This document shows positions 5,283 through 61,135 of a stretch of DNA of 64,000 nt, in pieces. Each line of letters begins with the position of its first letter. Positions within the stretch are counted from its first letter, which is position 1. The position numbers were made by a program, and so were the translations under genes. Origin of the DNA: a virus (Duplodnaviria > Caudoviricetes); the IMG/VR virus record IMGVR_UViG_3300035498_000263, positions 1-64,000 of that record. The stretch is one strand, 5' to 3'. A model generated the notes under the pieces. It searched no databases. It was given only the letters and a program-made list of their open reading frames with translations, and was not told where the DNA came from.

Positions 5283-5313
5283 GATTTGGTAGTTCCTTCT
5301 AAGGGGGAAGCCT

Positions 5314-5352
5314 TTAACGTAGTGATAATCTTGGTGATTGTTGCTACGTTAA
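5314..5352 (+). terminator. Hairpin terminator closing the accessory cassette
   Basis: ttaacgtagtgataatc / gattgttgctacgttaa (with G-T wobbles), followed by gtttt. Confidence 0.55.
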
Positions 5353-5684
5353 GTTTTACAACAGTAGTTTATATAGTCTGCGTTATGAAAGTTTAATAGA
5401 AGAAAAACATAGCAAGGTATTGACAATATAAAAATCGAACTGTATTTTTACAAAGTAAAAAGATAAATAATAAAGATAAATATAAACTTAATAATATTAA
5501 TAATAATTATAATTATAATATTAATTATAGTTATATTTATACTACTACAAATAGTGATGTGATATGTGTTCTTTTTGGTGATATTATTAGTTTACATCTA
5601 ACACTTTGGGATACTATTTATTATTCTACAACTACTAATGTTGCAAGAACACTTAATATTGTTTTACTTTTAAATATTAAGCCT

Positions 5685-6017
5685 ATGGAATTTATTAATC
5701 AAATGGTTGAAACTACTCTTAATAGTTTTGATTTTAGTTTTTGTATTACAACTAATGTACTAACTTATTTAGTTATTAGATTGATTGATGATTTGAATGG
5801 TGACAAAGTTGTTACCACTTGGCAAAAACGGCTAGTTCTCATAACTGTAGTATTTATACTTGCAGGTATTTATGTTTATATTGGTGAAGATACTAAGAGG
5901 ATTCTTAATAGTGCTATACTTGCTCCGGTTTATTGGAGTTGGATAGGTAAGCCAATAGTTAAACTTTTGAAGGTTGATTATAAAAAGAAAATTGATAAAT
6001 CAAATAGTAATGAATAA
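5685..6017 (+). CDS. Putative holin (crAss-type)
   Basis: Likely start MEFINQ at 5685. It has 2-3 TM segments, FDFSF...NVLTYLVI..ID.LNG, and a basic C-terminus DYKKK, as in crAss-like holins. Confidence 0.6.
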   Translation: MEFINQMVETTLNSFDFSFCITTNVLTYLVIRLIDDLNGDKVVTTWQKRLVLITVVFILAGIYVYIGEDTKRILNSAILAPVYWSWIGKPIVKLLKVDYKKKIDKSNSNE

Positions 6018-6081
6018 GCTCGTGTAAAACGACTCTGGCTGTTTTTTTTTGGACAAAACGTCTTTTTGTTTTTCCTTGAAG

Positions 6082-6115
6082 TGCTTAGTATTAGTGATAA
6101 TGCTAAGCATTTTTT
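6082..6115 (+). terminator. Intrinsic terminator after the holin
   Basis: tgcttagtatta / taatgctaagca followed by a T run. Confidence 0.6.
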
Positions 6116-6175
6116 ATATACAGCAGTCTTATAATAGTACATTTTGAGTACAGAAGTATTAAATATGTAAAAATA

Positions 6176-6208
6176 TTTGGAAGTTTAACTCTTTATATTA
6201 TATATTTG
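6176..6208 (+). promoter_or_regulatory. Bacteroidota sigmaA-type promoter for the tail/cargo operon
   Basis: TTTG (6176-6179), 21 nt, TATATTTG (6201-6208). Confidence 0.65.
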
Positions 6209-6426
6209 TTTCATCATAGTAGTAATGCTGCAAGGCTTGCTACTATTTAATATACTTCCCCCGTAGAAGGATATAAGGAATATAATCATTATTATTTATA
6301 AATCATTTTTGAAGTTATTGTTTATATGTTGTGTGTTTCAATGGTTGCGTTTTTAATTAAGTCGGTATTAATATTAATAATGATTTATCTGGTGTTCCTT
6401 CTACGGGTTATTAAAATTATTAAACT

Positions 6427-7110: not shown

Positions 7111-7119
7111 TATACTACT

Positions 7120-8842: not shown

Positions 8843-8847
8843 TAATT

Positions 8848-13302: not shown

Positions 13303-13305
13303 ATT

Positions 13306-16300
13306 ATGGGTAAAAGAAAATCTATTAAATCTATTAATGACACAAGATTTAATAATTGGTATAATGAATTAGCTAACAGAAGAGGTTGGACTAGTAAATG
13401 GAATGATAAAGAACAAGCTTATGACTATAAGACTTTCTTTAATGATAATCCTATTCAAGCTGCTATAATGCTGTATGATAGTCCTACTGCTCATTTTCCT
13501 GATACTTATAAACTTCCTAATCATCCTACATTTAGTAAATATAGTATGTATTCTAATGATGAAACTCCTGGAGGTGATTGGGTAACTAGATTAGGAATTA
13601 ATTATTATATTCCTAGTGAATATACAAAACAAAATATTAATGCTACAAGAGATTATCTACGAAATACAGGTGAAGGATATGTAGATGAAAATGGTTATAA
13701 TTTAGATATGAACGAAAATAGCTATAAATATGGTGGTCGTAGATCACTTAAATGTGGTGGTAATGAAAGACCTAAAGCATTTTGGGGTGCAGTAATTGGT
13801 GCTGTAGCTTCATTAGCTAGTAGCTTAATTGGAGCTTCATCATCTTCTAGTGCTGCTAAAAAACAATATGCTTTAAATCAAAAACAAGTTAATGCTCAAG
13901 AAGCTGCTAGTGCAACTCAAGCATATCAAGGAAATTATGATTTACAAAATGAATATGAAAATCAATTTAATAAAGTTGCTAGATATGGAACTATGAAAAA
14001 GATTGATGGAAATAGTAAATCAGATGGTAAAGCTACTATTACAGATGGTGGTAAGGCTATAAGAGTTGGTAGAGGATTATCTCTTCTACGGGGGAGGACT
14101 CATGAACAACTTGGAAGTGATGGCAAAACTGGTATTGGTATAAAGGTTGGAAATAATGAAATTGAAGCTGAAAATAATGAAGCTGCATTTACTAAAAATG
14201 GTAATCTTTATATACTTAGTGCTCAACCTATGATTAATGGTTATAGTCCTTCAGAACTCGCTGTTAATGGAATAGTTGATAAAAACACTGCTTATAATCT
14301 TCAAGAACAAGCTAAGAATGGAGCTAAAGTTACAAGAAGTTTGAGATGTGGTGGCAAGATTAGAAGAAAAGCTGAAGAAGGAGATGAAGTTTTAGGTACT
14401 AAATTTAATCCTACTGCTAGAATAGATTTTACTGAAGCTGTACCTGGTTTAGCAGAATATAAAAAATATATAGAAGACAGTAATAAAGTAAATCCTATAA
14501 CTACATATGGTATTTCTAGTGTTTTAAATGAAGATGCTTTGAATAATGAAAAAAATTATAGAAATACTTTATATAATATTGTAAAAGAAGAGGAAGATTT
14601 AAGACAAAAGCATGAAGATGAAGCGCGTGCAAGTTATGGTGATGAAACAGTTACTATGATGATTAACGGAACGCCTACTACTATGTCAAAAGATTTTATT
14701 GATAAAACTATATATAATGCTGGCAAATATGGATATGATCCATATTGGGCTATGGCTATTCCTGGTCAAGAAAGTTCGTATGGAACAGCAGTTTCAGAGG
14801 CTAATCCTGCTGCATTTTTTAACGCTCATGATTATTGGCAAAATTCTCCTGTTTTTGGAAATTATAAAGTAAATGAACCTTATGCTGACTTAATGTGGCA
14901 CGCAGCTCTATTAGTTAAACATCCAAAATATTATTCAAGATTAAAAGATAATGAATTAAATAGTGAATATAAAGATGTGTTTAATAACAAATATGTAGGA
15001 CAATATTATGGAAATGAAGGTAATAGAGATATAAAAGCATTAAATAGAGATGTAAAGTATTTTAGAGAAGTTTCTGATAAAGATTATTATAAAGCAAAAG
15101 ATATATATGATTGGATATTTAGAAGAGAAGCTTCCGGAAAATATAATCCTCTTGAACCTAATAATAGTATAGGTGATAGAAAAGCTAAAATACAAAATAG
15201 AATTAAAGAATTAAAGAATAGTAAAGATTTTATTAATTTTATGAATAATGAAGGTAATGAAATTTATCAAAGAGGTGTTGAAGAATATAATCGTAGACAA
15301 GCTGAAAAGCGTAATACTAAAGCATTTGGTGGTATGACTAATCGTAGGACTTTAAAAAATGGTGGGTCGCTATATGCCTCCCCCGTAGAAGACTCTGCTA
15401 ACAAAATCGAAAATTTGCCCATTTATTTGCGCCGTGTTGCAAGATTAGGTGGCAGCTTTACAACTAATCAGCAAAACAATTCAATGCGTCAGAACGCAAA
15501 TAAACGAGCAAAATTTTGGGATGGTGGTGACACGTCAAACTTAATTGCTGGACTTAGTAGTCTTGCAGGTAGTGCTATACAAGGTATTACATATAGTAAA
15601 ATGAAATCTCCTACAATGCCTCGTCTATATAGACCTCAAAGTTTTAAACTTAATTATAATGTAGCTCCTCAACTTGCTGAAGTAGAACGTGCTAGACAAT
15701 TAAGTACTGATTATACTAGAAGAAATACTGTTAGCTCTGCTACAGCAACTGATAGAGTTAATACTATAAATATGAATGCTGCTACTGAAGCTAATAAACT
15801 TTGGCAAACTAAAGAAAATCAGGAAACTGAAATGTTTAATAAGAATGCTGAGCAGATGAATATATATGGTGCTAAGAATGTTGAAGCAATGAATAATTAT
15901 TATAATGCTCTTACAGAGTTTAATAATAATAAGATTGCTGGTATTGCTAGTTCTATAAATGGTGGTCTTTCTGCTATTGGCAATTTTGCTACTAAATATG
16001 CTGAAAATCAAGAAACTCAAAATAGTAATACTATTAATCTTATGAGTAGTTTGATGGCTGCTAATCCAGAAACTGTTAGCTATGCTTTAGGTAATGATGA
16101 ATTTAGAAAAGCACTTGCCAAATCTGCAAATATAAATGTAAATGCATTAACTCAATTATTAGTTGATATTAATAGAAAGAAAGGTAATAATCCAACTATT
16201 GATACTACAACTATAACTAGTCCTAGTGAAAGTCAAGAAACTCCTACAAGTATTACAGGAACATCTACAAATATTACAGGAACACCTATGACTACACGTT

Positions 16301-22800: not shown

Positions 22801-25800
22801 AGTTTTTGTAAATGATATGCTTAATGGAAAAACTCCAAGAGAAATTACAAATATAACTGATGATGAAAAAGAAAAATTATCTAACGCTGTTAAAGCTATA
22901 TTATTAAAAGATGGCAATAATGATAATGTTGTAAAAGACTTACTTGATATTATTAATAGAGCTAAGTTTATTGCAGAACAAAAAGCTAATTCACAAAATA
23001 ACAATAATAATCAGCAAGGTGGAAATAATAATGCTACACCTACTGCTCCTTCTGGTACTAGTACGAATAATAATCAACAACAAAATAATAATCAACAACA
23101 AAATAATAATCAAACACCTACACCTACGCCTACACCTAATCCAGCTCCAGCAGCAGGTAATACTAATAATACTCAAACACCTGCTCCTAATCCTAATGCT
23201 GGTCAAACAGGTAATGGTAATCAAAATAATAATCAAGGTAATGGTAATCAAGCACAACCTGCTGCACCTCAAGCACAAACGGTTACTCCTAATTTAAGTA
23301 ATCCTCTTATTAAAACTACTGAACATAATTCTACTAATAAAATATTAACAGGAACTTCAGATGAAATAACCGAACAACTTAAATCAGATGCTAAAAGCGA
23401 TATTATGACTGAAGAAATGTTTGGTGAAATAGATATTAATAGCGTAAGTAATTTAATTGATAATGATTTTAATGAATATAAAGAATATTTAAAACAAAAA
23501 TATAATATTAATGATAGCCAAGCAGAAAAAATTGTTTCTGCTATGAAAGTTGGTCTTCATGACGTATTTGGCACAAAATATTCTTATGTAGATGAAATTC
23601 TTAATACAGAAGATGATGATGGTTCTAGATTTGCTACTAGAACTGCTTCTGTTGCACAATTATGTTATAACTATGTTTATCTTTCTAAGAATATAAATAA
23701 TCTAAATACTGATAGAATTAACTTTATAAGTTTTCTTGATTTACTTAAATTCTTTAAGAAAAAAGGAATGAATGATGCTTTAATAAATAAATATTATGAA
23801 GCATTAAATAGTTTAATTAGAGAAAATGTTACTGATGGTGTAGATAATTTATTTACATTTAATATTAATGGTAAAGAATATAACTTTGCTATTGATACAT
23901 CTGAACTTAATGGAAAAACAAGATATGAAATTAATAATTTAATTAGAAATATAGATGCTGACACAGAATCATTAAATACAAGTAGTATTGTAGAACATGA
24001 TTCTGGTCTTAGTCGTCTTTTGTCTTCATGTATTACAGTTGGTGATAATGCCAAGGTAGATGATATAATGAAAGCATTTAATTCTCTTGCTGATGGAGAA
24101 ACAGTTTATGGCGTTATTATTAGAAATGTTAATACAAATAAGCCTTTAGGTATATCTATTCGTAAAGGTTCTTCTACGGGGGAAGTCTTAGGACAAATTC
24201 CAATTATTACTCGTAGTTCAACTACAGGAAGTTATGAAGTAACTAATGAAGCTATTAGAACAGATGTATCATATATTAACGGACGTTATTATAGTCATGC
24301 TATAGAAGTTATAAAAAATTCTTTTCTTGATCCTGCTCTTTGTCAAATTCTTGATAATTATTATACTACAGATAAAACTAAAGTTGATGATGTTAGTAAA
24401 GTACTTGATGCTTTTAAAAATTATCTAAATCAAAAGACAAATGATAAATATGATCATGAAGAATTACTAGGTATTATTGATATTAGTAAAGCTGAACCTT
24501 ATAAACAAGCTCTTGACCATTTACTTAAACTATATAGTTATGGTAATGTATTTGATAGAAAACTTGATGAATGGGTAGCTAAACTTTACAGAAGTTATCA
24601 ATCAATAGAAAGTTTTACACAAAATCCTGATGGATTTGAAATAACTGTTAGTAAAAAATATCCTGGTGAACTTATAATAGTAGACGCTTCAAAAAGACAA
24701 GCTGCTAGTAAAGTTATTGCAAATTATAATGAAGAAAGAAAACAGCATAATGTTAAAATAGGTACTGTTGAATTTACAGGTAATATTTCATTTGCTGGAG
24801 AAGCTATAACTGAACCTTTTCAGTATGCTAATGTTGGTAGGTCATTTGTTACATTTGGCAATAATCCTGCTTTTAGACCTTTAGTTCATGCGTATCCTGT
24901 TATGTCAGGTGATTTAAAACAAGGTAGTGTTGGTAGAGAAATTATGGATGCTATGATAAATCATATAACTGATTTACTTACTAGAATAGCTGCTAATGAT
25001 TCTACTGTTGATCCTAATGAACTTGTAAAATTTCTTCAGAAAGCATTTCCTAGTAAAGTTAATAGTTATAATAGCATATTTAGATATATTAATCAAGACG
25101 AAATAGGTGCTTATGATGTAGTTGCTAGTGTAGGAAATAATAACTTTGTGTATGTTTCTTTAAACAGAGATATAAGTTTTGGTATAGGTATAAGAGACGA
25201 TAATAAGTCTGTTAAAATTAAAATAGGAGATAATGAATACGAATATGTAACTAGAGATGAGATTAAAGATGGTATTGAAACAGTATTTACTTATATAGGT
25301 TTTCATTTTAATCGTGAACTATTATCTACAGACGGAAAAGCTGCTAGTAACAATTTTAATGATTCAAGACTTTATACAAGAGATGATAAAGGTAACGTTG
25401 TATTAAATATTGGTGATAAAACATTTGTATTTGATACATATAATGATATGTTATTAGATTCTGATGCTGTTGAAATTACAACAGATAAGAAAGTTATAGG
25501 TGGACAAGAAACTAATTATGATATAGGTCAAAGATATATGCCTGTATTAAAAATTAAAATTGCTCCTAAGCAAACTAATAATACTAATCCGCTTATGCCA
25601 CAAGCATTTAATATATTAGATGTTAATACAACACTTAGACATTATTTAAATGAAACAGAAACAGAAAAAATAATAGACAATTTAGCTGAACATTTTGGTA
25701 TCAGTAAAGATACAATTATAGAACTTAGAAGATTAAATCTTCTTCCAAAAACTCTACATTATACTGATTCTACCGGATATGCTAATGTTAACGCATTTAT

Positions 25801-29400: not shown

Positions 29401-32400
29401 GATATGGGTGCATTTATATATGAAGTGTTTGATTTGGATAATCAAGGATACGTTATAGGTGAATTTAAAGATGGTAAATATGTACCTAAAGTTCGTGATA
29501 AATATAAACAATACGGAAAAGATATTCTAAGACATTTTTATAAGAATTATCATTATAATGGTCAATTATTTACTGAAGACAGTAATGGTAATTTTCATAT
29601 GACAGGTAATCTATTTAAGAGTGATAGATTTGTTATTTATGATGAACGTACTGGTAAAGTAGTAAATTATGGTAATGAATTTTTAAGTAAGTTTATAGAC
29701 TTCCTTAATACTACTACTAAAATAGAAAATAGAGTTATTATTACTGCAAAGAATGGAAAATATACTGGTATTCAACTTAGTGACTATCAAAAAGCTGCAT
29801 TAACTAATATGATACAAAGATATATTTCTGACTTTGTTAGAAATCAAATTCAAGAAATTAGACCTTATGAATCTGTACTTCGTGAATATAATAGAAATGC
29901 AAATGATTATGCAGAATTTGCTTTAAACTATGCTTTAATGTATAGCATTTCTAATGATTTGCTTGAAGGTGATACTAAATTTTATAAAAATTCTCAAGAT
30001 GTTCTTAAACGTGCTAAAGAGGACCAAATGGGTGGTATTCCATTTGGTATTGCTGATTTTAGACGTGGCGAACTTGATAGAACAGAAGAAATTAATGATA
30101 CACTAGCAAAAGATAATGTTACTTGTGTATCAAATACTCTTACAAATGAAAGAGTTCCTATTAGAAGTAAAACAACTTTTAATGCTATAACAATTAAAAA
30201 TACTGTTAGAACTTCTGAAGATATTAAAGAACAAGCTAAGCATCTTAGAAATATAGGTTGGAGTAATGAAAAGATTGAAAGAGTTTTAGGATTGATGATT
30301 AATGAAAAAGGTGAAGTAGTTGAAAATGGTATTTCAGGATTTATCAATACTAAAACTAATGATGCACAATCTTATATTACTTTTGCTGAATGGGTTCGTA
30401 GAATAACTGCTATGGGAGAGTATCCTAAATATAAAGCACTTATTCAAAAGATTAGTAGCGGAGAAAAACTTACTCCTTCTGAAGTTGAAACATTTATACA
30501 AGTTCAAAAGAATGTTTATTATGATTTACATTATAATAGTGAACTTAATGTTTATGCTCCACGTCAAATTAAAAACGCAGAATTTGTTCTTGTTCCACAA
30601 TTCATTGAAGGTACAGACCTTGAAAAAGTCTATAACTTTATGATGGCTAATGGTATTGATCAGCTTAATACTGAAGAAACTTCTAAAGCAGGTAAAGCTA
30701 ATGTATTTACTATTTGGGATAATGATGGTAAATTACAAAATCTTAATGAGCTTGCTAATCAAGTTGCTTTATCTCCTGAAGGAATTGAAACTTTTAGTTA
30801 TAATTATCTTTATCGTCAGCAAGAAGTTCATCAACATGTAGATGCTGTTAATAAAGCTGGTATTCAGATTATGAAAAAGATACTTGATAACATTCCTAAA
30901 GGACATAAACTTTATGAAGTTAAACAAGAACTTTTTGATTTGTATTCTAATAATATTGTTAGTTCTTATGAAAGTATTCTTCGTTTAGTTGATGCAAAGC
31001 TTGATAAAAATGGTAATGTTATCTTTGATGAAGATGGTATTATGAATTTTGATCAAAAAGTATTCTTTGCTAGACTTTATGAAGAAGCTAAACGTGTAGG
31101 TATTAATAGTAATGATTTAGCTTTTCTTACGCTTGATGCAGATGGTAATACTATTATGCCTACATGGTTAAGTTCATTTAGAAATAAACTTGAAAGTATT
31201 GTTCAATCTGTAGTTAATAAAAATGTTACTCGTCAAACACTTCCTGGTTTTCATGCTGCTCAGGTTACAGGAGTAGGTATTAAATTTGGCGGTAAGAATA
31301 ATACAAATACTGTTACAACTGATACTACAGGAAGACTTCGTTATCATCCTAAAATTAATGGTAAACAAGAGAATTATATTGAAGTTCTTATTCCTAGAAG
31401 TAAAATATTTGATGGATATACTGATGAACAGATTTTCTCTAAGGGGGAAGACGGCTTAAATATGCTTGAAAGAGCAGGTATTGATAAAATTATTGGTTAT
31501 CGTATTCCTACTGAAGGTAAACAATCTGTTGCAGTAATGAAAATAGTTGGTTTTGTAGATAAAGCACAAGGTTCAACTATTATAGTTCCTGATGATTGGG
31601 TTTCACAAACTGGTGCAGACTTCGACGTTGATAGTATTTATGCTATTAATTATGTTCTTAATAAAACTAAAGATGGCATTGAACGTATACAATATCTTGA
31701 AGATAAAGATAAATCTGAAGAAGAAATAGAATTTAATCGTGTAAACAGATTTATAGATTACGTTAATGAAGTATATGAAGATGCTAGACGTAGATATGAT
31801 GATTATTCTCAATTTAGTTCTGATAAGAAGGCTTTATTTACTGAAGCTAAAAAAGAGTTTAAAGAACAAAAAGATAAAACTCATGCTGAATTTAAAGAAA
31901 AGATTAATTCTAGTGAAGAAAAATCTCTTAGAGATGAATTAAAGAAAACTAATAAGGAAATTATAGATGTTGTAGATGATTTATTACAAACTAAATCTGA
32001 ACCTTATCTTGAAAGAGTTAAAGCTGTTATAGATTATCTTCAAGATAAAGTAGATGAACAGGCTTCCCCCGTAGAAGATAGTGCCCTTCAAAAATATCTT
32101 GACCTTTACAAATCTATAAAGCTTGATATTGATGTTTTTGAACAGTTTCTTGATAAGAAAAAAGTTGAAATTTATGGTGCTGCTGCTAAAGCAGTTCTTA
32201 AGTTGAAAATTGATTATTATAATAGTAAAATTGATTTACTTGCTAATAAGCTTGGTGTAGAACATCTTATGAAGTATGAAGATTTTATTAAACAAAGCGT
32301 TGCTAAACAAAATTCTACTTCTAGACGTAATACACAACTTCTTGATGATATGATTAAGATTGCTTCTAGCGATACTAGTCTTGAAGAAACTTTAACTGGT

Positions 32401-40925: not shown

Positions 40926-40990
40926 CTTCCCCCGTAGAAGAGTGAATTGTTTTTAATCAATTTATTCTCTATGGGGGAGTAATTATTTTT
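40926..40990 (+). terminator. Long hairpin built from two copies of the dispersed motif, ending the late operon
   Basis: tcccccgtagaagagtgaattg pairs with caatttattctctatggggga (G-T wobbles), followed by an AT/T-rich tail. Confidence 0.65.
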
Positions 40991-41243: not shown

Positions 41244-41317
41244 GGTCCTATAGCTCAGTAGGTTAGAGCATCTGACTCATAATCAGACGGTCATAGGTTC
41301 AAGCCCTATTGGGACCA
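41244..41317 (+). tRNA. tRNA with CAU anticodon, likely tRNA-Ile2 (lysidine) rather than Met
   Basis: Full cloverleaf; stem tctga/tcaga with loop ctCATaa; GGTTCAA T-loop; acceptor pairs C4-G69 and C5-G68 (TilS determinants). CCA is not encoded. Confidence 0.85.
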
Positions 41318-41346
41318 CGCATTTTGATTGTGTTTGTTTTGATGAT

Positions 41347-41420
41347 ACTTCAATAGCTCAACAGGATAGAGCAACAGCCTTCTAAGCTGTAGGTTTCGGG
41401 TTCGATTCCCGATTGAAGTA
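41347..41420 (+). tRNA. tRNA-Arg(UCU)
   Basis: acttcaa/ttgaagt acceptor stem; acagc-ctTCTaa-gctgt anticodon arm; GGTTCGATTCC T-arm. Confidence 0.9.
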
Positions 41421-41715
41421 CTAATTGTGATAGTAATAGTATTGATTATAATAATTCTAACGTCTAATCTAATCATTCTGTTACCTTGAACCATGTCTGA
41501 TTAATACTATTCTATCACAATATCTTATTAATGGGTTAAAGATTGGTATAATAAATGTGATAAGCAATGTTCATAAAAGAATTTAGAGATTGACTCGTGA
41601 AATTTGTCCTAATAGTGTTTGTGAAAATGCTATTAGGATTTTTGTTTATAGTAATCTTGGTAGTGATTCTTCTACGGGGGAAGGCTTTGTAAGGCTTGAC
41701 GACTATTAAAAAAAA

Positions 41716-41788
41716 TGCCCTACAATCGCAGATTAAATAGGTAGCTGATTAGTTAATCAACTTACAAATTTAATGCGATTGTAGGGCA
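41716..41788. terminator. 15-bp perfect inverted repeat at the convergence of the two transcription arms
   Basis: tgccctacaatcgca (41716-41730) / tgcgattgtagggca (41774-41788), preceded by an A run. Confidence 0.6.
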
Positions 41789-41849
41789 AATTAGATGGCT
41801 CTGTGAGCGTTTTATCGACTTAGTTATATGTATGACCGGAATAGAGGAA

Positions 41850-45791: not shown

Positions 45792-46066
45792 TACTTTGAT
45801 TTATATCTTGGATCAACATCCGTAAGATAAATCAGATTAGTTAAATAAACAGGTTTAAGTATTGTACCTGTACAGATTCTAAAACCTGCTATATTAATTG
45901 TTCGATTAACTAAATCAATAGTATGTCTATGATTCCTAATATGTTTAATAGCATTATCAATACTAAATCTACCATCTACAGGCATATAGGCATCACTACC
46001 ACAAAGTATTTCATCGTCCCAATCAAAGTACAGTACAAACCTTTTTGGATAAACATCTTTACTCAT
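45791..46066 (-). CDS. Hypothetical protein
   Basis: 91 aa overlapping both neighbours. Confidence 0.65.
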   Translation of the reverse strand: MSKDVYPKRFVLYFDWDDEILCGSDAYMPVDGRFSIDNAIKHIRNHRHTIDLVNRTINIAGFRICTGTILKPVYLTNLIYLTDVDPRYKSK

Positions 46067-46940
46067 TACTATCTAAATATTTACCATATCCTAACTTACA
46101 AAGTTCAAAGTAAACTTGACTAATAACACGTTTAGCTTCCGGAGCAGCTTTACCTGTTAATTCCTTATAACGAAGATTAATAATATTCTTCCATTCAGGA
46201 ATAGAATAAGTATAAACTAGAACAGATGCAGTATCTAAAGGTAAGAAATATCTAGCTTCTTCAATAGGCCAACCACTTCTAACTCTTTCAAGATACATTT
46301 CAGATGCTAAAGTCAAATCACGTACAACTTGTTCTTGTTCTTCAGTAGTCTTATTACTATACCACTCTGGAATAATCATAGTAATATTATTATTCTTTCC
46401 AAAGTTTACATATCTTGTAGACTGTTCTGCAATAGCATTAGGAGATACTCGATTAAGTTCACGTGCTACAAGAATATTCGTAACAATCTTAAAAGTAAAT
46501 CTACAAAGATTAGGGGCAAGAGTATAAATACTAGCAAGAGGCAACTCATGAACATCATTAAAAGTTTCTTTAAGTAATTTATCAAGCTCTTCATCTTCTC
46601 TATAAAATTGTTCATTAACTGCAATATAACTATCTACTCCTAACTGAAAACTAATATAAGGACAATGTTTGTAATGTTCATAAAATACCATTATATTATG
46701 GCGATTTTCTTCACATCTTAAACCGGTACAAGGAATATGAAAATATCTAGTAATATGACGATACATACTTCTATGTCCATGTTCCCAAAGTTTATTAAAC
46801 ATATTCTTATCAGATTCAGGACCTTTAGATTTACTAGCATAACAAGTTCTAGCAGCAATAAGAAAAGGATTAATATCTCCAACAGTTTCACAAGTAGGTT
46901 TATTAATAAGCTCTACTGTAGGTGTAATTAACGTAATCAT
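46059..46940 (-). CDS. thyX: Flavin-dependent thymidylate synthase
   Basis: AARTCY, HGHRSM, VARELNR..PNAIAEQSTRYVN (divergent ThyX motif), EEARYFLP and LR. Confidence 0.8.
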   Translation of the reverse strand: MITLITPTVELINKPTCETVGDINPFLIAARTCYASKSKGPESDKNMFNKLWEHGHRSMYRHITRYFHIPCTGLRCEENRHNIMVFYEHYKHCPYISFQLGVDSYIAVNEQFYREDEELDKLLKETFNDVHELPLASIYTLAPNLCRFTFKIVTNILVARELNRVSPNAIAEQSTRYVNFGKNNNITMIIPEWYSNKTTEEQEQVVRDLTLASEMYLERVRSGWPIEEARYFLPLDTASVLVYTYSIPEWKNIINLRYKELTGKAAPEAKRVISQVYFELCKLGYGKYLDSNE

Positions 46941-46942: not shown

Positions 46943-47287
46943 TTATTTTACATCTTCAAAATCAATTTCATCCATTTTAGCTTCAACATCAGTATACTTA
47001 CTTCTTTCAATAAAAGATAAAGTCATTACTGCATAATTAGCTAAATCAATAAGAGTATCTTCGATACTTTCATCAACTTTAGCATTATCATTATCACCTT
47101 TAGGATTTAAAAGATTATAAGCTCTTTCAAATTTATCATTAATACGAGCAAGACCGATATTAATTCCAAACTTTTCAAGAGTCTTATCGAAACTATTACC
47201 ATAATCATGATTTTTAGCAATATGAATTGCTTTCATTCTTGTAATAATGTCGTTAAACTTTTCGATTTCGTTTTTGCTTTTAATCAT
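46943..47287 (-). CDS. Nucleotide modification associated domain 1 (DUF1599-like) protein
   Basis: KNHDYGNSF...RINDK..R and ESIEDTLIDLANYA. Confidence 0.8.
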   Translation of the reverse strand: MIKSKNEIEKFNDIITRMKAIHIAKNHDYGNSFDKTLEKFGINIGLARINDKFERAYNLLNPKGDNDNAKVDESIEDTLIDLANYAVMTLSFIERSKYTDVEAKMDEIDFEDVK

Positions 47288-47354: not shown

Positions 47355-47501
47355 TTAAACACAAATTTATTTTAATATTTTTCGAGCCATTTTAAGCCTC
47401 ATACAGCGACTTTTATTGGTCGGCTGATTAGTTGTTCACAAAGGCACATTGATTGCAACAGAGCGCAATTATGGAACAAATAAGACCATTTAGCACAACA
47501 A

Positions 47502-47554
47502 TTCCCCCGTAGAAGAGTCGATTGAATAATCATCGAGATTCTTCTACGGGGGAA
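47502..47554. terminator. Perfect 15-bp inverted repeat made of two copies of the dispersed motif
   Basis: ttcccccgtagaaga / tcttctacgggggaa with a 23-nt spacer, just downstream of the 47575 gene. Confidence 0.65.
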
Positions 47555-47574
47555 GCCTTTAAAATAAATTTAGT

Positions 47575-49655: not shown

Positions 49656-50125
49656 AAGCCAGTAAACTTAAAATTAGGTATTTTAAATATTGCTAGCTTT
49701 TCAGGCTTACCAATAGCTGCATGAGCTACTTTAGTAAGTAATATATTACTAAATGTTTCTACAGTTGCTACTTTATTATTTACAAGTTCAGTAGTATTAT
49801 CTTTATAATTAAACCTTCTAGGTACGAAAGCTCCATTATAAGAATCTCCAATCCAATCATATTTATTGATTACATCAACATCTTCTGGATTATCGAAATC
49901 TACTGTTCCATAGCAATAACAAGATTTATTACTTATTTCAAATTTCTTAATTCTTTTTTCTCCTCTAATTTCATAATCGAAATCTACACTTATGTTTTCA
50001 CCGGCTTCAAGGAGTTCTTCTTGTTTATCTGTAATACCTGTCATAAGTATTACAAAACCAATTTTTTCTCCTTTTATACGATTAATTATATGTGTAATTT
50101 CATTACTAGAAAGTAACATTCTCAT
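49649..50125 (-). CDS. Hypothetical protein
   Basis: 158 aa, overlapping the primase end. Confidence 0.7.
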   Translation of the reverse strand: MRMLLSSNEITHIINRIKGEKIGFVILMTGITDKQEELLEAGENISVDFDYEIRGEKRIKKFEISNKSCYCYGTVDFDNPEDVDVINKYDWIGDSYNGAFVPRRFNYKDNTTELVNNKVATVETFSNILLTKVAHAAIGKPEKLAIFKIPNFKFTGLW

Positions 50126-51290
50126 AATATCTATATTTAAGATTTATATATTGAAATGTTTCTCTAACAAATTCTTCAATAACTTCAGCAGAATAATGTT
50201 CTTCTAATTCAGCAAAATCTTTTGCATTAAAATTATTAAGACCAAATTCACCTCTAGTTATAAAGATATAATTGATACCATAAGTTTCCTTTAAGTATCT
50301 TGCGCCTTTTCTACCTGTTGTATCGAAATCTAATAATGACAGAATAACACCATCAAGAGCCATTCTTTCATTAAGGTAATTATATTCTACATCTTTTAAG
50401 AGATAATTTTCACTTGGAAGATTAATAATTCCTATTTTAACTTTAAGACCTCCCCCGTAGAGAGGATGATTGAATAAATGATTTCCAATTGCCAATCTAT
50501 CTTTACTTGATTTAGTTATAAGAATTATATCATAATCAAATAATTCAAGATTAGGTAAACCTTCAAGACAATTACTATTAGTTATAAACTTCAATTCTTT
50601 ATGTCTATCACGAAGAGGAAAATAAAGTTTAATATTATTAATACCTTTATTTGTTGTACCTAAATAATAAGCATAACAAGGATCTTTATATGAATACTTA
50701 TATTTAGGTTCACTGTCAATACCTCTATTAATATAATATTGGTCTACAGGATAAACAAAATGAGTATTAAGATAATTAAGACTAATTCTCCACTTATTCC
50801 AAACTTTAGAATCTTCATTATTCCAACTTCTAGTAACTATATCTATAATAGGTTTAGCACTTCTTGTTTTAACAATGGCTTCATTTATCAAATTTTCTAC
50901 ATTAGGATCAACATCTTTTCCATCTATAATGTCACTAAAAGTATATGCTATATGTTTAAGTACAAAATAAAAATCTTTTTTATTATTTGTATCTATTGTA
51001 CGATTATAAATTATACTTAACACATAAGCAACAGTTCCATATACATCATCAAAGAAACCAAAACCGCCAAAATCACGTACTTTAAGTTTACCTTTATTGT
51101 TGTATTGAAAACCCATACTTTTATTTTCATCATTATCTCTAAAAACAGATTTAATTAGAACATTATGCTCAATACAATTTTTAATTACATCAATATCAAT
51201 ACCTAAGTAACGACTTAGAATCAGCTCTTGTGACACTTTACTTTCAATATAATCTTTAGTAAGTGAAGTTGTATTTGGATTTCTTTTCAT
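50106..51290 (-). CDS. dnaG: DNA primase (crAss-type, TOPRIM)
   Basis: KVRDFGG.GF.DD.Y, NIKLYFP, ILITKSSKD and LLDFDTTG (TOPRIM DxD). Confidence 0.8.
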   Translation of the reverse strand: MKRNPNTTSLTKDYIESKVSQELILSRYLGIDIDVIKNCIEHNVLIKSVFRDNDENKSMGFQYNNKGKLKVRDFGGFGFFDDVYGTVAYVLSIIYNRTIDTNNKKDFYFVLKHIAYTFSDIIDGKDVDPNVENLINEAIVKTRSAKPIIDIVTRSWNNEDSKVWNKWRISLNYLNTHFVYPVDQYYINRGIDSEPKYKYSYKDPCYAYYLGTTNKGINNIKLYFPLRDRHKELKFITNSNCLEGLPNLELFDYDIILITKSSKDRLAIGNHLFNHPLYGGGLKVKIGIINLPSENYLLKDVEYNYLNERMALDGVILSLLDFDTTGRKGARYLKETYGINYIFITRGEFGLNNFNAKDFAELEEHYSAEVIEEFVRETFQYINLKYRYYENVTF

Positions 51291-51310
51291 GATAGTATTA
51301 TTATATAAAA

Positions 51311-51351: not shown

Positions 51352-51393
51352 CTTTAAAAATCCATAACTAAGTCTTTACTTATTATTAATACT

Positions 51394-52401: not shown

Positions 52402-52434
52402 AAAATTATAAGTTTTAAAATTGTTAGATATAAA

Positions 52435-52477
52435 AAGGTGATAACAGACTATTTAACAATACATCTGTTATCACCTT
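52435..52477 (-). terminator. 14-bp hairpin terminator
   Basis: aaggtgataacaga / tctgttatcacctt, with a T run following on the - strand. Confidence 0.65.
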
Positions 52478-52506
52478 AAATAATGAAATCAAAAAGATTA
52501 GTTTAA

Positions 52507-53295
52507 TTACTTCTCACCGCGTGAGGCATCCTTATCTTCAGCGAAGTTGATAGGATATGCTACAATAGTAACATCCTTAACACCGTCAAAGTAATCATCA
52601 ACAGTAACAGGAGATTCAACATCAACATCGAATACACGAGCATACTTCTTCTTCTCGTTCAAATCTGCCTTCAACTGATTCCAAACATTAGAGTCAGAGA
52701 AGTTAAGAGTAACACCTACACCAGAAAGACCAGCAGTAGAAGTCAAACGGCTACCACTAAACTTATCAACTTCAGGAGAAGAAACCATTTCCGGAGTAAT
52801 AGCAGCAATAAGTTCCTCGTCAGTTGCGTTAGGATTACCAACAGCTTCAATCAAAGCATCACGATTAGCTTCAAGCAAAGCCTCTGCATTCTCCTTAATA
52901 AGAGCCTTCTTAGCCTCTTCAGTAAAACGAAGAGTAGTCTTCTTAGGCTCACCATTAGACTTAAACTCCTGCACACCCTTAGCGATGTACCACTGGCTGA
53001 ACTCCTTAATAAGCTGTTCCTGTACGGCAACGTCATTAATATCAAGACCCTGCTCTTCACACAAAGCAACAATTTCCTCACTCTTGCTTTCAACTGCCTC
53101 ACGAACACGGTCAATATTGTTAAGGAACATAATGCAATCACCTGCCTTAACACCCAGCTTACGACTAACAGCAGCCGTTACAGAGAAACGACCTTCAGTA
53201 GAATTAACAACAAGCTGAGGAGCAGCATTAACAACAGTAGACTTCTGACCAGCAACAACAGCAGAAAGACCGAAAGAAATTTTACCTGATTTCAT
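52507..53295 (-). CDS. Conserved crAss protein of unknown function, probably highly expressed
   Basis: SFGLSAV..G.KS.VVNA.PQL, WYIAKGV and NFSDSNVWNQLKAD are recalled from crAss-like phages; strong optimal-codon bias. Confidence 0.75.
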   Translation of the reverse strand: MKSGKISFGLSAVVAGQKSTVVNAAPQLVVNSTEGRFSVTAAVSRKLGVKAGDCIMFLNNIDRVREAVESKSEEIVALCEEQGLDINDVAVQEQLIKEFSQWYIAKGVQEFKSNGEPKKTTLRFTEEAKKALIKENAEALLEANRDALIEAVGNPNATDEELIAAITPEMVSSPEVDKFSGSRLTSTAGLSGVGVTLNFSDSNVWNQLKADLNEKKKYARVFDVDVESPVTVDDYFDGVKDVTIVAYPINFAEDKDASRGEK

Positions 53296-53373
53296 AATAG
53301 TAAGAATTTAAATTGTGAATAAATTAGTTTATTATTCTTTATAACCAACTTGGTTACTAGAAATTTTAATTGT

Positions 53374-54309: not shown

Positions 54310-54343
54310 TATTTCAAAGAGCGTTTTGTTTTGATTACCATTG

Positions 54344-54374
54344 CAAATATACTAAGTTTTTCAATAATCACAAA
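54344..54374 (-). promoter_or_regulatory. Bacteroidota sigmaA-type promoter for recT, overlapping the end of the upstream gene
   Basis: On the - strand: TTTG (54374-54371), 19 nt, TATATTTG (54351-54344). Confidence 0.7.
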
Positions 54375-55764
54375 TAATAGACCCATTATTTTCGCTTACT
54401 TCTGACAAATATTTATCGTCTACAATAATGTTAAAATTGTTTGGTATTTGTTCTTCACTAAGACGTTTATACTCAAAAGTAGCTTTACAATATAGTCTAT
54501 AAACAATATTAGGATTACTAACAAACTTGATTTTTGATAGTCGATACTTATACTCATTGACTGAATCACAAAGCGGAGAAGTGATTATTAAAACGTCGAT
54601 AGAGGCTTCTAATTCTTTGTTAGGCGCACTCGAACACGAGAGTAAATGAATTGTTCCATTCCGGAATAATCGTTCGTTAGCGTGCGATTGTGCGACCGTT
54701 CCAAGCATCTTCGGTTTTCCTCTATTTTCGCCAGACTTAATAACCATAGGCTCACCTTGTTCATCAACAGCTTGTATAGGTTCTAACTTATCATGAGAAC
54801 AAGCAGCATATACCACACCAAGATTAGTATTAACATATTCACAAACAGCATTTGCAAAATCAGCATTTTGACTAATTACAAGTATCTGTTTATTAATATG
54901 TTTTTGTACTATACTTAGTATTTCATCCAACTTACAAGAATTACCACTTATAAGTTCTCTACGTTTACGAATTACATCATAAGTTATTTTTCCTCTGTCA
55001 TGTAAATTATTAGGATTAAAGATTGAATCAATTTGTGTATTAAATGGAATAGTCATATCCAAATCAGCACTCCAACCATTATTAGCTGCAATTTGACTAC
55101 ATATAGCAATAGATGATGTATTATTTTCTTTATCACCAAATATAGCTTTATTCATATAATCTATTGAACCAAATATAGAAATACTTTGTTGAATATATTC
55201 ATCATATTCATTCATTAACTTTGCTTCATCAGGATTTGTAACAATGCAAGCAACTCTTGTTTCTTCTACGGGGGAAGCCAAGCTAATCTCTACAAGTTCT
55301 GAATTATCATAACCTTGTATTTTAGGATAAATAGGATAAATACTAAAAGTATCTTTTGGAGTATCGGTAAAACAAGCTAATCTAAACTTAGCTCTATAAC
55401 CGAGAGATGCCATACACAAGTCATATTGATTAACTGCATAAAATACAACTAAATCAAAACTTCTTGTTACAACATTACGAGCATATTCAGTAGTTAAAAC
55501 TTTAAGACATTTATTTTCAAAAGCACGATGAATAGCTTCATTGTCAGTATGATGATTAAGATAACGAGTAATATCACTCTTATTCTCAATACAATCAGTA
55601 ACAACAATCATATTAGCTTTATCATTCTTAGAATATATACGTCTAATAATTTCAAATATAATATGCTTTACATCTAAAGGTTGAGGCAAATATATACTAC
55701 CTATACCTTTATTATCACGCCATTTTAAAATTGTCGATTCATAAATCTTATCTGCATTAAACAT
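54361..55764 (-). CDS. SF2/SNF2-like helicase homolog, degenerate
   Basis: Matches the recalled crAss helicase-like gene next to PolB (KW..NKG.GS, NGWSA..DMT, LDEILSIV....KQILVIS). No clear Walker A or DExH motif. Confidence 0.55.
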   Translation of the reverse strand: MFNADKIYESTILKWRDNKGIGSIYLPQPLDVKHIIFEIIRRIYSKNDKANMIVVTDCIENKSDITRYLNHHTDNEAIHRAFENKCLKVLTTEYARNVVTRSFDLVVFYAVNQYDLCMASLGYRAKFRLACFTDTPKDTFSIYPIYPKIQGYDNSELVEISLASPVEETRVACIVTNPDEAKLMNEYDEYIQQSISIFGSIDYMNKAIFGDKENNTSSIAICSQIAANNGWSADLDMTIPFNTQIDSIFNPNNLHDRGKITYDVIRKRRELISGNSCKLDEILSIVQKHINKQILVISQNADFANAVCEYVNTNLGVVYAACSHDKLEPIQAVDEQGEPMVIKSGENRGKPKMLGTVAQSHANERLFRNGTIHLLSCSSAPNKELEASIDVLIITSPLCDSVNEYKYRLSKIKFVSNPNIVYRLYCKATFEYKRLSEEQIPNNFNIIVDDKYLSEVSENNGSIICDY

Positions 55765-58023: not shown

Positions 58024-58577
58024 ATCCGTACAACATTATATTCATTTGTATTATTTTTTGTTAGATTTAGCCATTTACTATAATACTCATCAAAAACTTT
58101 TGACTTATTAGCATCATAAAGTTTAACAGAAGGAGAATAGTTAGAACAAAACATTATACCATTACCGGAAAAATATGCATCATTAATGTCAACACTTCTT
58201 CCTAATAATCTATTACCAACATTACCTAACATAAGTATTCTCTTAATACCATAATTGACAACTTCATAATTAAGATATTTAGAACATCTTAAAAGTATGT
58301 TGTTGTCAATTATAAGTTCACGAGATTCTTTACATTTAATAAGTGTAGTAATATAATATCTGTCTAACAAGTCTTCCCCCGTAGAGAGAAAGTGAATATC
58401 CTTCAACATTTTGTATAGTCCATTGTAACTCAAATCTTGAGCTTTATAAGTAGATTTATCAATATAAGGAAGAATAATCATATTTCCATATAAAGCATTA
58501 CCTATACCTTTGATATTATGTCCTAAATCATTATATAACCTAAGTACACAATTTTCACAATAAGGTTTATACTCCAT
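58020..58577 (-). CDS. Uracil-DNA glycosylase-like protein (family 4-like, divergent)
   Basis: CENC, GIGN, YITTLIKC, RC..YL..EV, ILMLG and NYSP; same position as in crAss-like phages. Confidence 0.6.
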   Translation of the reverse strand: MEYKPYCENCVLRLYNDLGHNIKGIGNALYGNMIILPYIDKSTYKAQDLSYNGLYKMLKDIHFLSTGEDLLDRYYITTLIKCKESRELIIDNNILLRCSKYLNYEVVNYGIKRILMLGNVGNRLLGRSVDINDAYFSGNGIMFCSNYSPSVKLYDANKSKVFDEYYSKWLNLTKNNTNEYNVVRI

Positions 58578-60048
58578 ATTTCAAATAAAGTTTGTCTTTG
58601 GCTCGACTACAAGCAACATATAACAATCTGTTAATAAATTCACAATTAGGTCTAACACGACCAAATGAATCAAAAACAATATCATTAACATCAACTAATA
58701 CATTTTTAAATGTACTTCCTTGAGCTTTATGTGCAGTATATGCAAAGCCATAATCCAAATCTCTAGTGAAACGAATGGTTTTACCATCACCATCTTTAAT
58801 GTTTACAAGCAATAAACAAGTGTTCTTAAATTCAAAGTATTCTTTCCATGCTTTAGCACGATAATTTGAAGGTGCTCTTTTAGCAGCAGCAACAAGTTCG
58901 TTAGCAATTTTACAATACATTTGAATACTAAAAGCATTGTTATGATCAACTATAAATAATGGAGTAGTAGTTTTACCACCATAAATAGCAGTAAATCTAA
59001 CCATATAACCTTTTAATTCATATTTAGGATGAACATAATTTACAACATCATGTAAAATATACTCTTCACTATTACGAATAATAGGTTCGTTAAAATCATT
59101 TACTAAAGTAACATAACTAGTTATTAAATCATTTTTAGTAATAATTGATTTTGCAGAATCTTTTATAATATTATTTCTAATAAAATTATTCCACGCTGCA
59201 ACACAATCATTAGTAAAACTAATTATATGAACTAAATCTACATTCTTAGTAAACTCTTCATCATTAAATAGTTGATATGCTTTTGCATCAAATTCTTTAG
59301 GATTTAAAACTTCATATCCTTTAGAACCATCACTATTAAATTCGGCTTTATTTTTAGAAATATATTCAAGAAACTTAAATGTTTTATTCTTAATATCTTT
59401 TCTTAATAGTTCAAGAAGAGGACTAATTGGATTATCTTCACCTTGACGAACTATTTCAGTAAGTGTACTAGTTTTAATAGCTTTAAAAGCACTTGAATAT
59501 GTTTCTTTTACAGGAGGTAGCTGACTTGCATCACCAAGATAAATAAGTTTAGTATGTGTTCTTTTACAAATCTTTTCAAGAAATGTACACAAACCTTTAT
59601 TTATCATAGATGATTCATCAACTATGTAAACAACATAACCATCAATCTTTACATGACCTTTAGGATCAAAAGGAGGATTATTAATATCAAAATCTTCAAT
59701 ATTAAAATTCAATCTAAGACCTAAATCAGACTGTAAAGTATTAACTTTTATATTGCTTAGATTAATACTTTCTTGTAATACACGACAAGCTTTATGAGTA
59801 GGAGCAGAAACACCTATTGTACTATGGCTATGTTTACAATTTTGTATCAAGGCTCTAACAAGAAATGTTTTACCTGTACCAGCAGGTCCAACTAAAGCAC
59901 GTTTAAAATCATTTTCATCAAACTTATTATTCATAAATTCAATAAGACTTTTATATGCTTCTTCTTGTCCTTTCGTAAAATTCGTTGTAGTTTGATGTTC
60001 TTTATTATTGGGTTTATTAAGACCACTAACTTTAACTATATCACTCAT
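58567..60048 (-). CDS. Dda/RecD-like SF1B helicase
   Basis: GPAGTGKT, APTHKA, IVDESSMI, GDASQLPPV, LTEIVRQ, YTAHKAQGST and LYVACSRAK. Confidence 0.9.
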   Translation of the reverse strand: MSDIVKVSGLNKPNNKEHQTTTNFTKGQEEAYKSLIEFMNNKFDENDFKRALVGPAGTGKTFLVRALIQNCKHSHSTIGVSAPTHKACRVLQESINLSNIKVNTLQSDLGLRLNFNIEDFDINNPPFDPKGHVKIDGYVVYIVDESSMINKGLCTFLEKICKRTHTKLIYLGDASQLPPVKETYSSAFKAIKTSTLTEIVRQGEDNPISPLLELLRKDIKNKTFKFLEYISKNKAEFNSDGSKGYEVLNPKEFDAKAYQLFNDEEFTKNVDLVHIISFTNDCVAAWNNFIRNNIIKDSAKSIITKNDLITSYVTLVNDFNEPIIRNSEEYILHDVVNYVHPKYELKGYMVRFTAIYGGKTTTPLFIVDHNNAFSIQMYCKIANELVAAAKRAPSNYRAKAWKEYFEFKNTCLLLVNIKDGDGKTIRFTRDLDYGFAYTAHKAQGSTFKNVLVDVNDIVFDSFGRVRPNCEFINRLLYVACSRAKDKLYLKYGV

Positions 60049-60433
60049 ATTTCTTTAATATTTCATTATAAATACTTAAAGTTTCAAGACCGTCAATAGA
60101 CTCAATTCTAAAGAATAGATTATCATTATAAGAAACAATTTTACCATTAACTTTAACACGTTCAACAAATGGTATATACATACCAGGCATTTCACATCTA
60201 TGTTCAACAGGTCTAATTATTCTATAATGTTGTCCATTAAACTTGTCTTTGGAATAGATAATAGCTTTACCTTTACAACTAAAAGATTCAGGTGCAATAT
60301 TATATAATTTTTTATTGCAATAAACCTTAAATTGATTAGTATTAACTATCACTACTCCAAAGACACCATCTTCTACTACAACTTTAACTTTAGGTTTAGC
60401 TTGTTTAAGCTTAAAATTAAAGTGTATGTTCAT
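60041..60433 (-). CDS. Hypothetical protein
   Basis: 130 aa, overlapping the helicase start. Confidence 0.7.
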   Translation of the reverse strand: MNIHFNFKLKQAKPKVKVVVEDGVFGVVIVNTNQFKVYCNKKLYNIAPESFSCKGKAIIYSKDKFNGQHYRIIRPVEHRCEMPGMYIPFVERVKVNGKIVSYNDNLFFRIESIDGLETLSIYNEILKKYE

Positions 60434-60439
60434 AGAGGA

Positions 60440-60718
60440 TTATTTCTTTTTGTTCTTCAACTTATGTTCTTCTACGGGGGAAGCGTGTTTAGTTTTAGCA
60501 CTATCCCTAAAAGATACATTAGCAGCACCTACAATAGCGTCTTTAGAACGAATCCAACGCCATCCACAATAGTTACAAAGGAAATCAATTTTACCCCATG
60601 TACCATTACCAACAAGACCACTTTCAGTATTGACTTTAATAAGATGTTCTGCAAAATCAATAACTACTTTCTTACTAAGTGCTGCGAGAACTCGCACTTC
60701 ATCATAATGTTTTTTCAT
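60440..60718 (-). CDS. Hypothetical protein
   Basis: 92 aa containing GNGTWGKIDFLCNYCGW. Confidence 0.7.
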   Translation of the reverse strand: MKKHYDEVRVLAALSKKVVIDFAEHLIKVNTESGLVGNGTWGKIDFLCNYCGWRWIRSKDAIVGAANVSFRDSAKTKHASPVEEHKLKNKKK

Positions 60719-60781
60719 TACTTTACGTGTTTTAAATTTATTATTTATTTGTTTATTTATAGTACCATTATTGGCACTAGT

Positions 60782-61135
60782 TTAATCTTTTGTATAAGTA
60801 AGACCAGATTGAATATGACTATCACCCGCCTCCCCCGTAGAAGAGTCTATATCATTATCACTTCCATTCTGTTCTTCATTCATCTTTTCTTGTTGATTAT
60901 ATAAAGCAATTTTTACTTCATCAACAGAAACTCCTTCAACTGCATTTTCTTTAATAACATCTTCATAATAGCTTGCAGCAATTCTTTGCCTAGCTTCACA
61001 AAGATATTTTGTAAATGCTTTCTTGTCATGTTCCATAAGTTGTTGAGCAAGATTAGTGCTAACATTACTTAACTGCATTACGTTATCAATTTTGTTGATA
61101 AGCATAATCTTCTTTGTAGACTCTTTGATTTTCAT
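60782..61135 (-). CDS. Hypothetical protein
   Basis: 117 aa, helical with an acidic tail. Confidence 0.65.
   Translation of the reverse strand: MKIKESTKKIMLINKIDNVMQLSNVSTNLAQQLMEHDKKAFTKYLCEARQRIAASYYEDVIKENAVEGVSVDEVKIALYNQQEKMNEEQNGSDNDIDSSTGEAGDSHIQSGLTYTKD

Follow-up and report, generated by a model that had tools for sequence, protein, structure and literature searches.

The 64,000-nucleotide (nt) stretch considered here (the window), which comprises the first 64 kb of the 86,316-bp IMG/VR virus record IMGVR_UViG_3300035498_000263, belongs to a crAss-like virus and is dotted with copies of a GC-rich word that reads tTCTTCTACGGGGGAAGcc in this genome. Our analysis shows that this word is a family-wide signal of the Intestiviridae rather than a peculiarity of one genome, and that purifying selection keeps it as a DNA signal at orthologous positions, in genes as well as in spacers. 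An earlier sequence-only reading of the window had drawn attention to the repeats and proposed a cis-acting site system covering the whole chromosome, which the distribution of the copies supports; what it did not foresee is that the word occurs throughout the family, at conserved positions and in lineage dialects, and that its copies are evenly spaced per strand.

The 14 exact copies of the 10-mer core CTACGGGGGA reported by that reading lie where it had placed them, on the strands it had named, and none arose in 100 dinucleotide-preserving shuffles; the whole 86-kb genome holds 17. Allowing up to three mismatches, the 15-mer has 16 matches in the window against 0.21 expected. A position weight matrix (PWM) yields 21 clear sites in the genome (13 on the plus and 8 on the minus strand) with scores of 18–40 bits, the range of 14–18 bits being empty and shuffled sequences reaching 13.5 bits at most. 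Likewise real are the three variants differing at the C of the CG and the one truncated copy (Table 1). Counted against an order-3 Markov background, motif 10-mers exceed expectation about 1500-fold, and no other word is grossly enriched. The impression that G5/C5 runs are confined to the motif was borne out for all 17 such runs of the window, whose GC content is 0.25–0.33; the genome's one G5 run outside a motif context (CACCAGGGGGTACTTC) lies beyond the window, at position 67628. Neighbouring copies are at most 8863 bp apart, in keeping with the limit of about 9 kb given earlier, and their flanks are not repeated. Ten copies of the window, nine exact and one variant, are located in open reading frames (ORFs), as had been claimed, where they are read in all three sense frames and mostly in one antisense frame.

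Judged by nucleotide identity of the DNA polymerase gene (73%), the nearest annotated relative of the phage is cr8_1, a member of the Intestiviridae, subfamily Obtuvirinae. A word of this kind, its flanks specific to the lineage, was present in 47 of 47 relative loci obtained through the polymerase, while a search for relatives via the 1042-amino acid (aa) protein of the phage found none. Whole Intestiviridae genomes (four IMG/VR relatives, one further genome, G010, as well as cr8_1, p-crAssphage, crAss002 and R. jaberico) contain 24–31 copies versus 0–2 for a reversed control: 28 copies of ACATACCTTTTACGGGGSGGCTAGA in the RefSeq genome of cr8_1, 31 copies of tCCATCCTCYACGGGGRGT in the prototype p-crAssphage, 29 in the cultured crAss002, and 26 in the likewise cultured R. 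jaberico, whose use of the dialect TACRGGGG indicates that the CpG is not essential. Over all Intestiviridae genomes tested, the number of copies is about 20–31. The common grammar is a pyrimidine (Y) tract, TA, one variable base, a G-run and a dialect-specific 3' flank, together forming an asymmetric word of about 16–25 nt. Only one dialect is used within a genome, and dialects differ between lineages at orthologous sites, so that a phage-encoded reader co-evolving with the word is the most likely one. Since the genomes compared have a median protein identity of only about 40–50%, the signal is as old as the family itself. No copy of the word was found in the Crevaviridae genome examined and only one in the Suoliviridae genome examined. 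The Crevaviridae genome MT774393.1 (cr127_1; loci L235-L239) has a GC-rich word of its own, TAATGGCCACAAGGGCGAGAGGTGTTCCGAAAT, about 35 nt in length and occurring in 10 copies on both strands, several of which form inverted pairs 165–560 bp apart; this may represent an analogous signal system in another family.

Evidence for selection at the level of the DNA comes from the genic copies. Nearly all relatives compared carry copies at the orthologous codons of the genes for the UDG-like protein, the SNF2-like helicase and the primase (Table 1), and the primase copy is retained in p-crAssphage at 47% identity. In the gene of the virion RNA polymerase (RNAP), an antisense copy is found at relative position 0.41–0.48 in 5 of 5 genomes compared. 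The synonymous codons written by orthologous copies are locked (Gly GGG in 36 of 38, Tyr TAC in 34 of 36, Pro CCC in 15 of 16, and Thr ACG in 15 of 17 cases), whereas elsewhere in this genome the same codons make up 0.4%, 7%, 1.2%, and 3% of their families. The sequence-only reading had noted that the copies use codons otherwise avoided by the phage, and the counts agree: outside the motif, GGG accounts for 5 of 1203 Gly codons, CCC for 7 of 601 Pro, CGG for 4 of 942 Arg, and ACG for 46 of 1524 Thr codons. Its suggestion that selection acts on the nucleic acid rather than the protein is thereby strengthened, as synonymous positions are locked across orthologues at 40–65% protein identity. When 128 sites were classified, 50 were sense and 29 antisense in ORFs (the latter about 37% of coding copies), and the antisense copies were conserved equally well; spacers, with 49 of the 128 sites on about 9% of the sequence, are enriched about 4-fold. 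In this genome and in four relatives, GGG/CCC is also the most or second most under-represented trinucleotide outside the motif (observed/expected (O/E) 0.5–0.6), an avoidance that is real but too modest for interpretation. GGCC is nearly lacking in this genome, in the relative G008 and in p-crAssphage, and GATC in three of four relatives, the latter being mildly avoided in this genome (118 copies, O/E 0.25).

It might be argued that such repeats are a mobile mini-element resembling miniature inverted-repeat transposable elements (MITEs) or repetitive extragenic palindromic (REP) elements, or an artefact of assembly or primers. The repeats are indeed GC-rich in an AT-rich genome, and their core resembles what we take to be the 16S 341F primer region and, presumably, the GTAG foot of REP elements. 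This explanation is effectively refuted by positional conservation, which extends down to 40–50% protein identity. Moreover, copies are in frame and without indels relative to orthologues lacking the word, their flanks differ, and the word recurs in independent assemblies and in cultured phages; coding copies leave the frames open and are therefore not chimeric artefacts. Whereas REP elements and MITEs are extragenic palindromic inserting units, 62% of the sites described here are within ORFs and single copies are unstructured (see below). Nor is the word high-copy in the host genomes searched. In 81 host-family genomes, a sample that seems mostly Prevotella-like with Bacteroides proper under-sampled, YYYYTACGGGGG was no commoner than its reversed control; the exact 15-mer occurred in bacterial genomes as scattered singles only; and inverted pairs with motif ends numbered 0–4 per genome, not above control, in 251 host-family genomes that apparently are mostly small Prevotella-like ones. 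A host word or host inverted-repeat unit was thus not reproduced in these samples, and the earlier idea of host-type Chi, uptake or parS marks did not hold for the same lack of enrichment.

Table 1. Copies of the word in the 64-kb window, with strand and genetic context (window coordinates; sense and antisense refer to the ORF concerned).
Position	Strand	Copy	Context	Further details
5296-5310	+	variant, CTTCTAAGGGGGAAG / TAAGGGGG	intergenic	PWM 32 bits
6255-6269	-	exact	intergenic	upstream of tail gene at 6427
6397-6407	+	truncated, CCTTCTACGGG	19 nt ahead of ATG	back-to-back with 6255-6269
14083-14097	+		1042-aa ORF	sense, L-R-G; orthologous copy in 4/4 relatives
15377-15391	-		1042-aa ORF	antisense, S-P-V-E
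24171-24185	+		2200-aa ORF	sense, S-T-G-E
31436-31450	+	variant, TCTCTAAGGGGGAAG / TAAGGGGG	4600-aa virion RNAP ORF	sense; PWM 21.7 bits
32063-32077	-		virion RNAP ORF	antisense
40926-40979	- / +	back-to-back inverted pair: exact 40926-40940 (-), variant TATGGGGG 40965-40979 (+)	6 nt past stop of last late gene
41669-41683	+	single copy	between two terminator hairpins
47501-47555	- / +	back-to-back inverted pair: 47501-47515 (-), 47541-47555 (+)	intergenic
50449-50463	-		DnaG-type primase gene	sense, Y-G-G; orthologous copy in 45/49 relatives including p-crAssphage
55263-55277	+		467-aa SNF2-like helicase ORF	antisense, S-P-V-E; orthologous copy in 16/17 relatives
58373-58387	-		UDG-like ORF	sense, S-T-G-E; orthologous copy in 34/37 relatives
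60469-60483	+		small-ORF region	antisense to 92-aa minus-strand ORF
60829-60843	-		117-aa minus-strand ORF	sense

As to strand layout, each strand carries its own even series, with a copy roughly every 6–7 kb; the coefficient of variation of the per-strand gaps is 0.29–0.65, whereas randomly placed sites give about 0.9 (most strands reach p ≤ 0.004), and strand counts are balanced in the relatives. Orientation alternates in 75% of neighbouring pairs, but because two independent even series reproduce this value in simulation (73–78%), we consider alternation a by-product of per-strand spacing. Shifting the sites of one strand circularly relative to those of the other likewise left alternation and gap statistics unchanged, and coupling between the strands was rejected on these two grounds, close inverted pairs forming the exception. 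Strand-asymmetric composition between sites did not reach significance (p = 0.08). Antisense copies are depleted in that 40% of the long arm which is nearest the capsid genes (37 sense to 14 antisense versus 86 to 79 elsewhere, p = 0.01), at a total site density that stays roughly constant along the genome; the short arm showed no antisense gradient, and no depletion was seen in it near the divergent junction.

This layout bears on two further explanations. Sites for an architectural, packaging or ejection protein organising the chromosome, for example virion IHF-like proteins, would account for the roughly constant total density, and IHF-like genes are conserved. A protein that binds duplex DNA, however, needs no even spacing per strand and would be expected to leave orientation random, yet the series of the two strands are independent and each is regular by itself, so that we hold this explanation to be very improbable. 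Hardly more probable, in our estimate, are polar, Chi-like control sites for a phage enzyme tracking along DNA (a helicase-nuclease, exonuclease or translocase), whereby phage DNA would be spared or processed and unmarked host DNA degraded. The word is strand-specific, present in both orientations, evenly spaced and lacking in the host genomes sampled, and the phage encodes a RecD-like superfamily 1 (SF1) helicase, an SNF2-like ATPase, RecT and an exonuclease; yet Chi-type words measure 5–8 nt instead of 16–25 nt, Chi sites are not evenly spaced, and no RecBCD- or AddAB-like complex is evident.

Close inverted pairs are in excess (26 observed versus 9.4 expected), mostly with copies back-to-back in spacers and 26–100 bp apart, and fold into hairpins of -32 to -34 kcal/mol. 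The pair at 40926-40979 forms a hairpin of -32 kcal/mol (z -7.1) followed by a T-run and looks like the intrinsic terminator of the late arm; among the copies folded, it alone has the GC-rich hairpin plus U-run of such terminators. The pair at 47501-47555 folds at -34 kcal/mol (z -7 to -8) without a U-tract. By contrast, 10 single copies folded as single-stranded DNA (ssDNA) had no more structure than shuffles (z -1.7 to +0.6). The quasi-palindrome CTTC-N7-GAAG described by the sequence-only reading is true of this genome, but its arms are not conserved in relatives. As single copies do not fold and the palindrome is not conserved, what is read is evidently the sequence of the word rather than a hairpin, and the hairpin or palindrome interpretation was discarded. 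An RNA tetraloop (cUACGg) was also considered and fails in the CCTTTTACGGGGCGG, CACGGGG and TACAGGGG dialects.

Could the word act in transcription, be it as a promoter with its start at the G-run, as a pause or antitermination loading site, or as a polar terminator, used by the virion RNAP or a modified host polymerase? Its size and look (about 20 nt, with CTAC followed by GGGG) recall T7-group promoters. At the divergent junction of p-crAssphage, a back-to-back pair directs each copy into its own arm. Sense copies outnumber antisense ones and are the only common kind in the capsid module, and the pair at 40926-40979 is terminator-like, as described above. Several observations nonetheless make a transcription signal appear unlikely to us. 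Over a third of the coding copies run antisense, and their conservation is just as good. In 5 of 5 genomes compared, the late arm is followed, about 14–25 nt after the stop codon of its last gene, by a copy oriented back towards it. The single copy at 41669-41683 is bracketed by the terminator hairpin of a tRNA operon (41606-41639) and the bidirectional terminator of the opposite arm (about 41709-41790), a position that, to go by these predicted terminators, should see little transcription. The annotations of cr8_1 and p-crAssphage contain no T7-like or other single-subunit RNAP, only the giant virion RNAP. In phage phi14:2, whose virion RNAP copies single-stranded or denatured DNA, early transcripts of this enzyme lack a common upstream motif (10.1101/2020.03.07.982082). 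Taken together, the terminator-bracketed copy and the well-conserved antisense genic copies speak more for a process at the level of DNA in which strands are read than for a promoter or an RNA element. The tRNA unit itself, encoding tRNA-Met (CAT) and tRNA-Arg (TCT) at 41244-41421 (+) in the convergent junction, has its own Bacteroides-type -7 box (TAtaTTTG, at about 41027) besides the terminator hairpin.

Among DNA-level processes, we tentatively prefer one in which the copies would serve as strand-specific start marks for DNA synthesis that are read by the DnaG/T7-type primase of the phage, a reading to which we assign a probability of roughly 0.3. It is suggested by the independent even spacing on each strand in combination with the half-site layout, that is, a conserved 5' half and a 3' half that carries the dialect. 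The primase would recognise the copies where single-stranded template is exposed; if T7 is taken as a guide, the 5' half (Y-tract and TA) would be copied into a purine-rich primer, and the uncopied part, which the N-terminal domain of the primase would grip, would comprise the G-run and the 3' flank that carries the dialect. Each strand would then need regularly placed sites wherever it becomes the lagging or displaced strand, and the close back-to-back pairs in spacers would have a second function as stable hairpins, of which one or more look like terminators. Strand-specific sites along each strand and a primase are indeed both present, a constellation that is compatible with priming but not specific for it. 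Some points weigh against this reading. Known DnaG-type primases use sites of 3–5 nt, so that a footprint of 16–25 nt and fragments of about 6.5 kb would be unusual. That antisense depletion is restricted to the capsid module would be explained better by a cost linked to transcription than by a simple model of fork direction. A third point emerges from the primase itself: its identity drops from at least 43% to at most 29% at the family boundary, beyond which the word is missing, but any vertically inherited gene may show the same break, and the association appears weak.

The primase gene (50106-51290, minus strand; 394 aa) matches the PHROG entry 'DNA primase' at 1e-62 and its product resembles Toprim_2/Zn_ribbon_DnaG clusters of the ESM Atlas, whereas no Pfam or PDB sequence match was obtained. 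Going by these resemblances, the protein is DnaG/T7-like and not RepB'-like; a sequence-specific primase of the RepB' type was rejected as there was no PDB or Pfam sequence match and the Atlas look-alikes are DnaG/Toprim types. With 46–66% identity, the primase ranks among the best conserved of 31 family-core proteins, and it is the one annotated core replication protein for which reading of ssDNA sequence would be expected. The N-terminal 60 residues of the primase family (alignment A1) contain one invariant cysteine only, C39; the canonical four-ligand zinc ribbon of DnaG may thus be missing, which bears on template reading. Another candidate reader emerged from phylogenetic profiling, which delineated a family-specific core block of RecT, an SSB-like protein and, encoded between them, a 262-aa protein of unknown function (52507-53295, minus strand). 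The latter belongs to the core of every Intestiviridae genome compared and could not be detected in the Crevaviridae or Suoliviridae genomes. Its structural model is confident (predicted local distance difference test (pLDDT) score of 84), and Foldseek returned no match at E ≤ 0.001, the best VIA-align Z score being 4.4 (weak B3/pseudobarrel-like rows only). A search for the reader by covariation gave no resolution, as the genomes are 40–50% diverged except for G008 and cr8_1, which are near-identical and have a common dialect. Elsewhere in the window, a DUF1599 ('nucleotide modification associated domain 1') protein (46943-47287, minus strand) adjoins the ThyX thymidylate synthase (46059-46940, minus strand), which hints at modified-nucleotide metabolism.

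The main rival to the priming model, which we consider doubtful yet deserving of attention, is that the copies are programmed single-strand nick sites, with a sequence-specific phage nickase cutting the motif strand of DNA that is packaged in virions or undergoing replication; such nicks might function as swivels, or their 3'-OH ends might start strand-displacement synthesis or recombination. The word resembles the nick motif WACTRTGAC of phage Rembedalsseter and 60 relatives (PMC11780129) in being long, asymmetric, strand-specific, family-conserved and partly intragenic. All genomes examined encode an ATP-dependent ligase together with a RecT/exonuclease set, as would suit a nicked genome, and antisense depletion in the highly expressed capsid module fits the avoidance of template-strand breaks. 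On the other hand, known nick motifs are confined to one strand (PMC11780129), whereas the word is found on both, and cleavage of back-to-back copies 26–100 bp apart would risk double-strand breaks. A family-wide nickase was likewise not found, HNH genes being sporadic and none of them belonging to the 31-protein core. Taking priming and nicking together, we regard it as unlikely, though not negligible, that replication in the Intestiviridae has a primase or an unrecognised nickase start strands only at about 25–30 fixed, co-evolving 20-nt words, every 6–7 kb per strand.

The most abundant virus of the human gut belongs to the Intestiviridae. The signal forces near-forbidden codons into polymerase-module, virion RNAP and structural genes, and its positions have been kept since the origin of the family; it must therefore serve a core step of the life cycle. 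No description of the motif was found in the open literature searched, including publications on promoters, nicks and repeats of crAss phages, the genome survey of Yutin 2021 and the paper on culturing C. communis. Experimentally, the word offers a handle in three cultured members (crAss002, R. jaberico and C. communis), and with the lineage dialects nature has in effect carried out a specificity-swap experiment by which the reader protein might be located; for viromics, the word provides a family-diagnostic sequence signature. If strand initiation or nicking were programmed on both strands, this would be a new kind of genome organisation, and if strands were initiated at fixed words, the genome would carry a hard-wired map of Okazaki-like fragments. 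To our knowledge, such a mode of replication control has not been described for any virus or cell.

Sequence-specific priming signals on opposite strands are familiar from the ssi signals, which are read by RepB' in RSF1010 (ssiA/ssiB) and by DnaG in the G4 type. These, however, are hairpins of about 40 nt clustered at an origin, whereas the copies described here are spread genome-wide, the 10 single copies folded lack a stable ssDNA hairpin, and the putative primase is DnaG-like. The stoperators of cluster A mycobacteriophages, 13-bp asymmetric repressor sites, likewise comprise 20–30 asymmetric protein-binding sites dispersed in a phage genome, some of them genic; they are oriented with transcription and bound by a lysogenic repressor, in contrast to the word, which occurs in both orientations and evenly per strand. 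Chi sites of RecBCD/AddAB as well as the DNA uptake sequences (DUS) and uptake signal sequences (USS) share with it over-representation of a strand-specific word across a genome, coding DNA included, but are host-genome words of 5–12 nt with uneven spacing, while our word shows no enrichment in the host-family genomes sampled. T7-group promoters (about 23 bp, with TATA followed by GGGAGA) are alike in length, in identity within a genome, in the existence of lineage versions and in the G-run after a TA step; they differ in being co-oriented, mostly intergenic and located upstream of the genes they serve, and dependent on a T7-type RNAP, whereas 29 of our 128 sites, about a third of the coding copies, are antisense in ORFs.

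The nick motifs of T5, phiKMV-like phages and the tf/Rembedalsseter group are similarly asymmetric, group-conserved, dispersed and partly intragenic. They measure 9–19 nt and have all copies on one strand, while the word, here analysed from sequence alone, forms even series on both, with 13 plus and 8 minus sites in the present genome. The system closest to the proposed priming function is that of the T7 primase sites, for which a model has been put forward in which the copied pentanucleotide 5'-(G/T)2GTC-3' is accompanied by about 10 nt of 3' flank that the zinc-binding domain reads, with 14–26 strong sites lying 1–6 kb apart (PMC12839067). Whereas the T7 core comprises 5 nt and its flank preference is loose, the word spans 16–25 nt, is near-invariant in each genome and far more evenly spaced, and its role in priming is putative. 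What the two would have in common is that strand-specific ssDNA words, a few dozen strong sites placed kilobases apart, are paired with a phage primase of the DnaG family, with a 5' part that is (here, would be) copied and a 3' part that is recognised.

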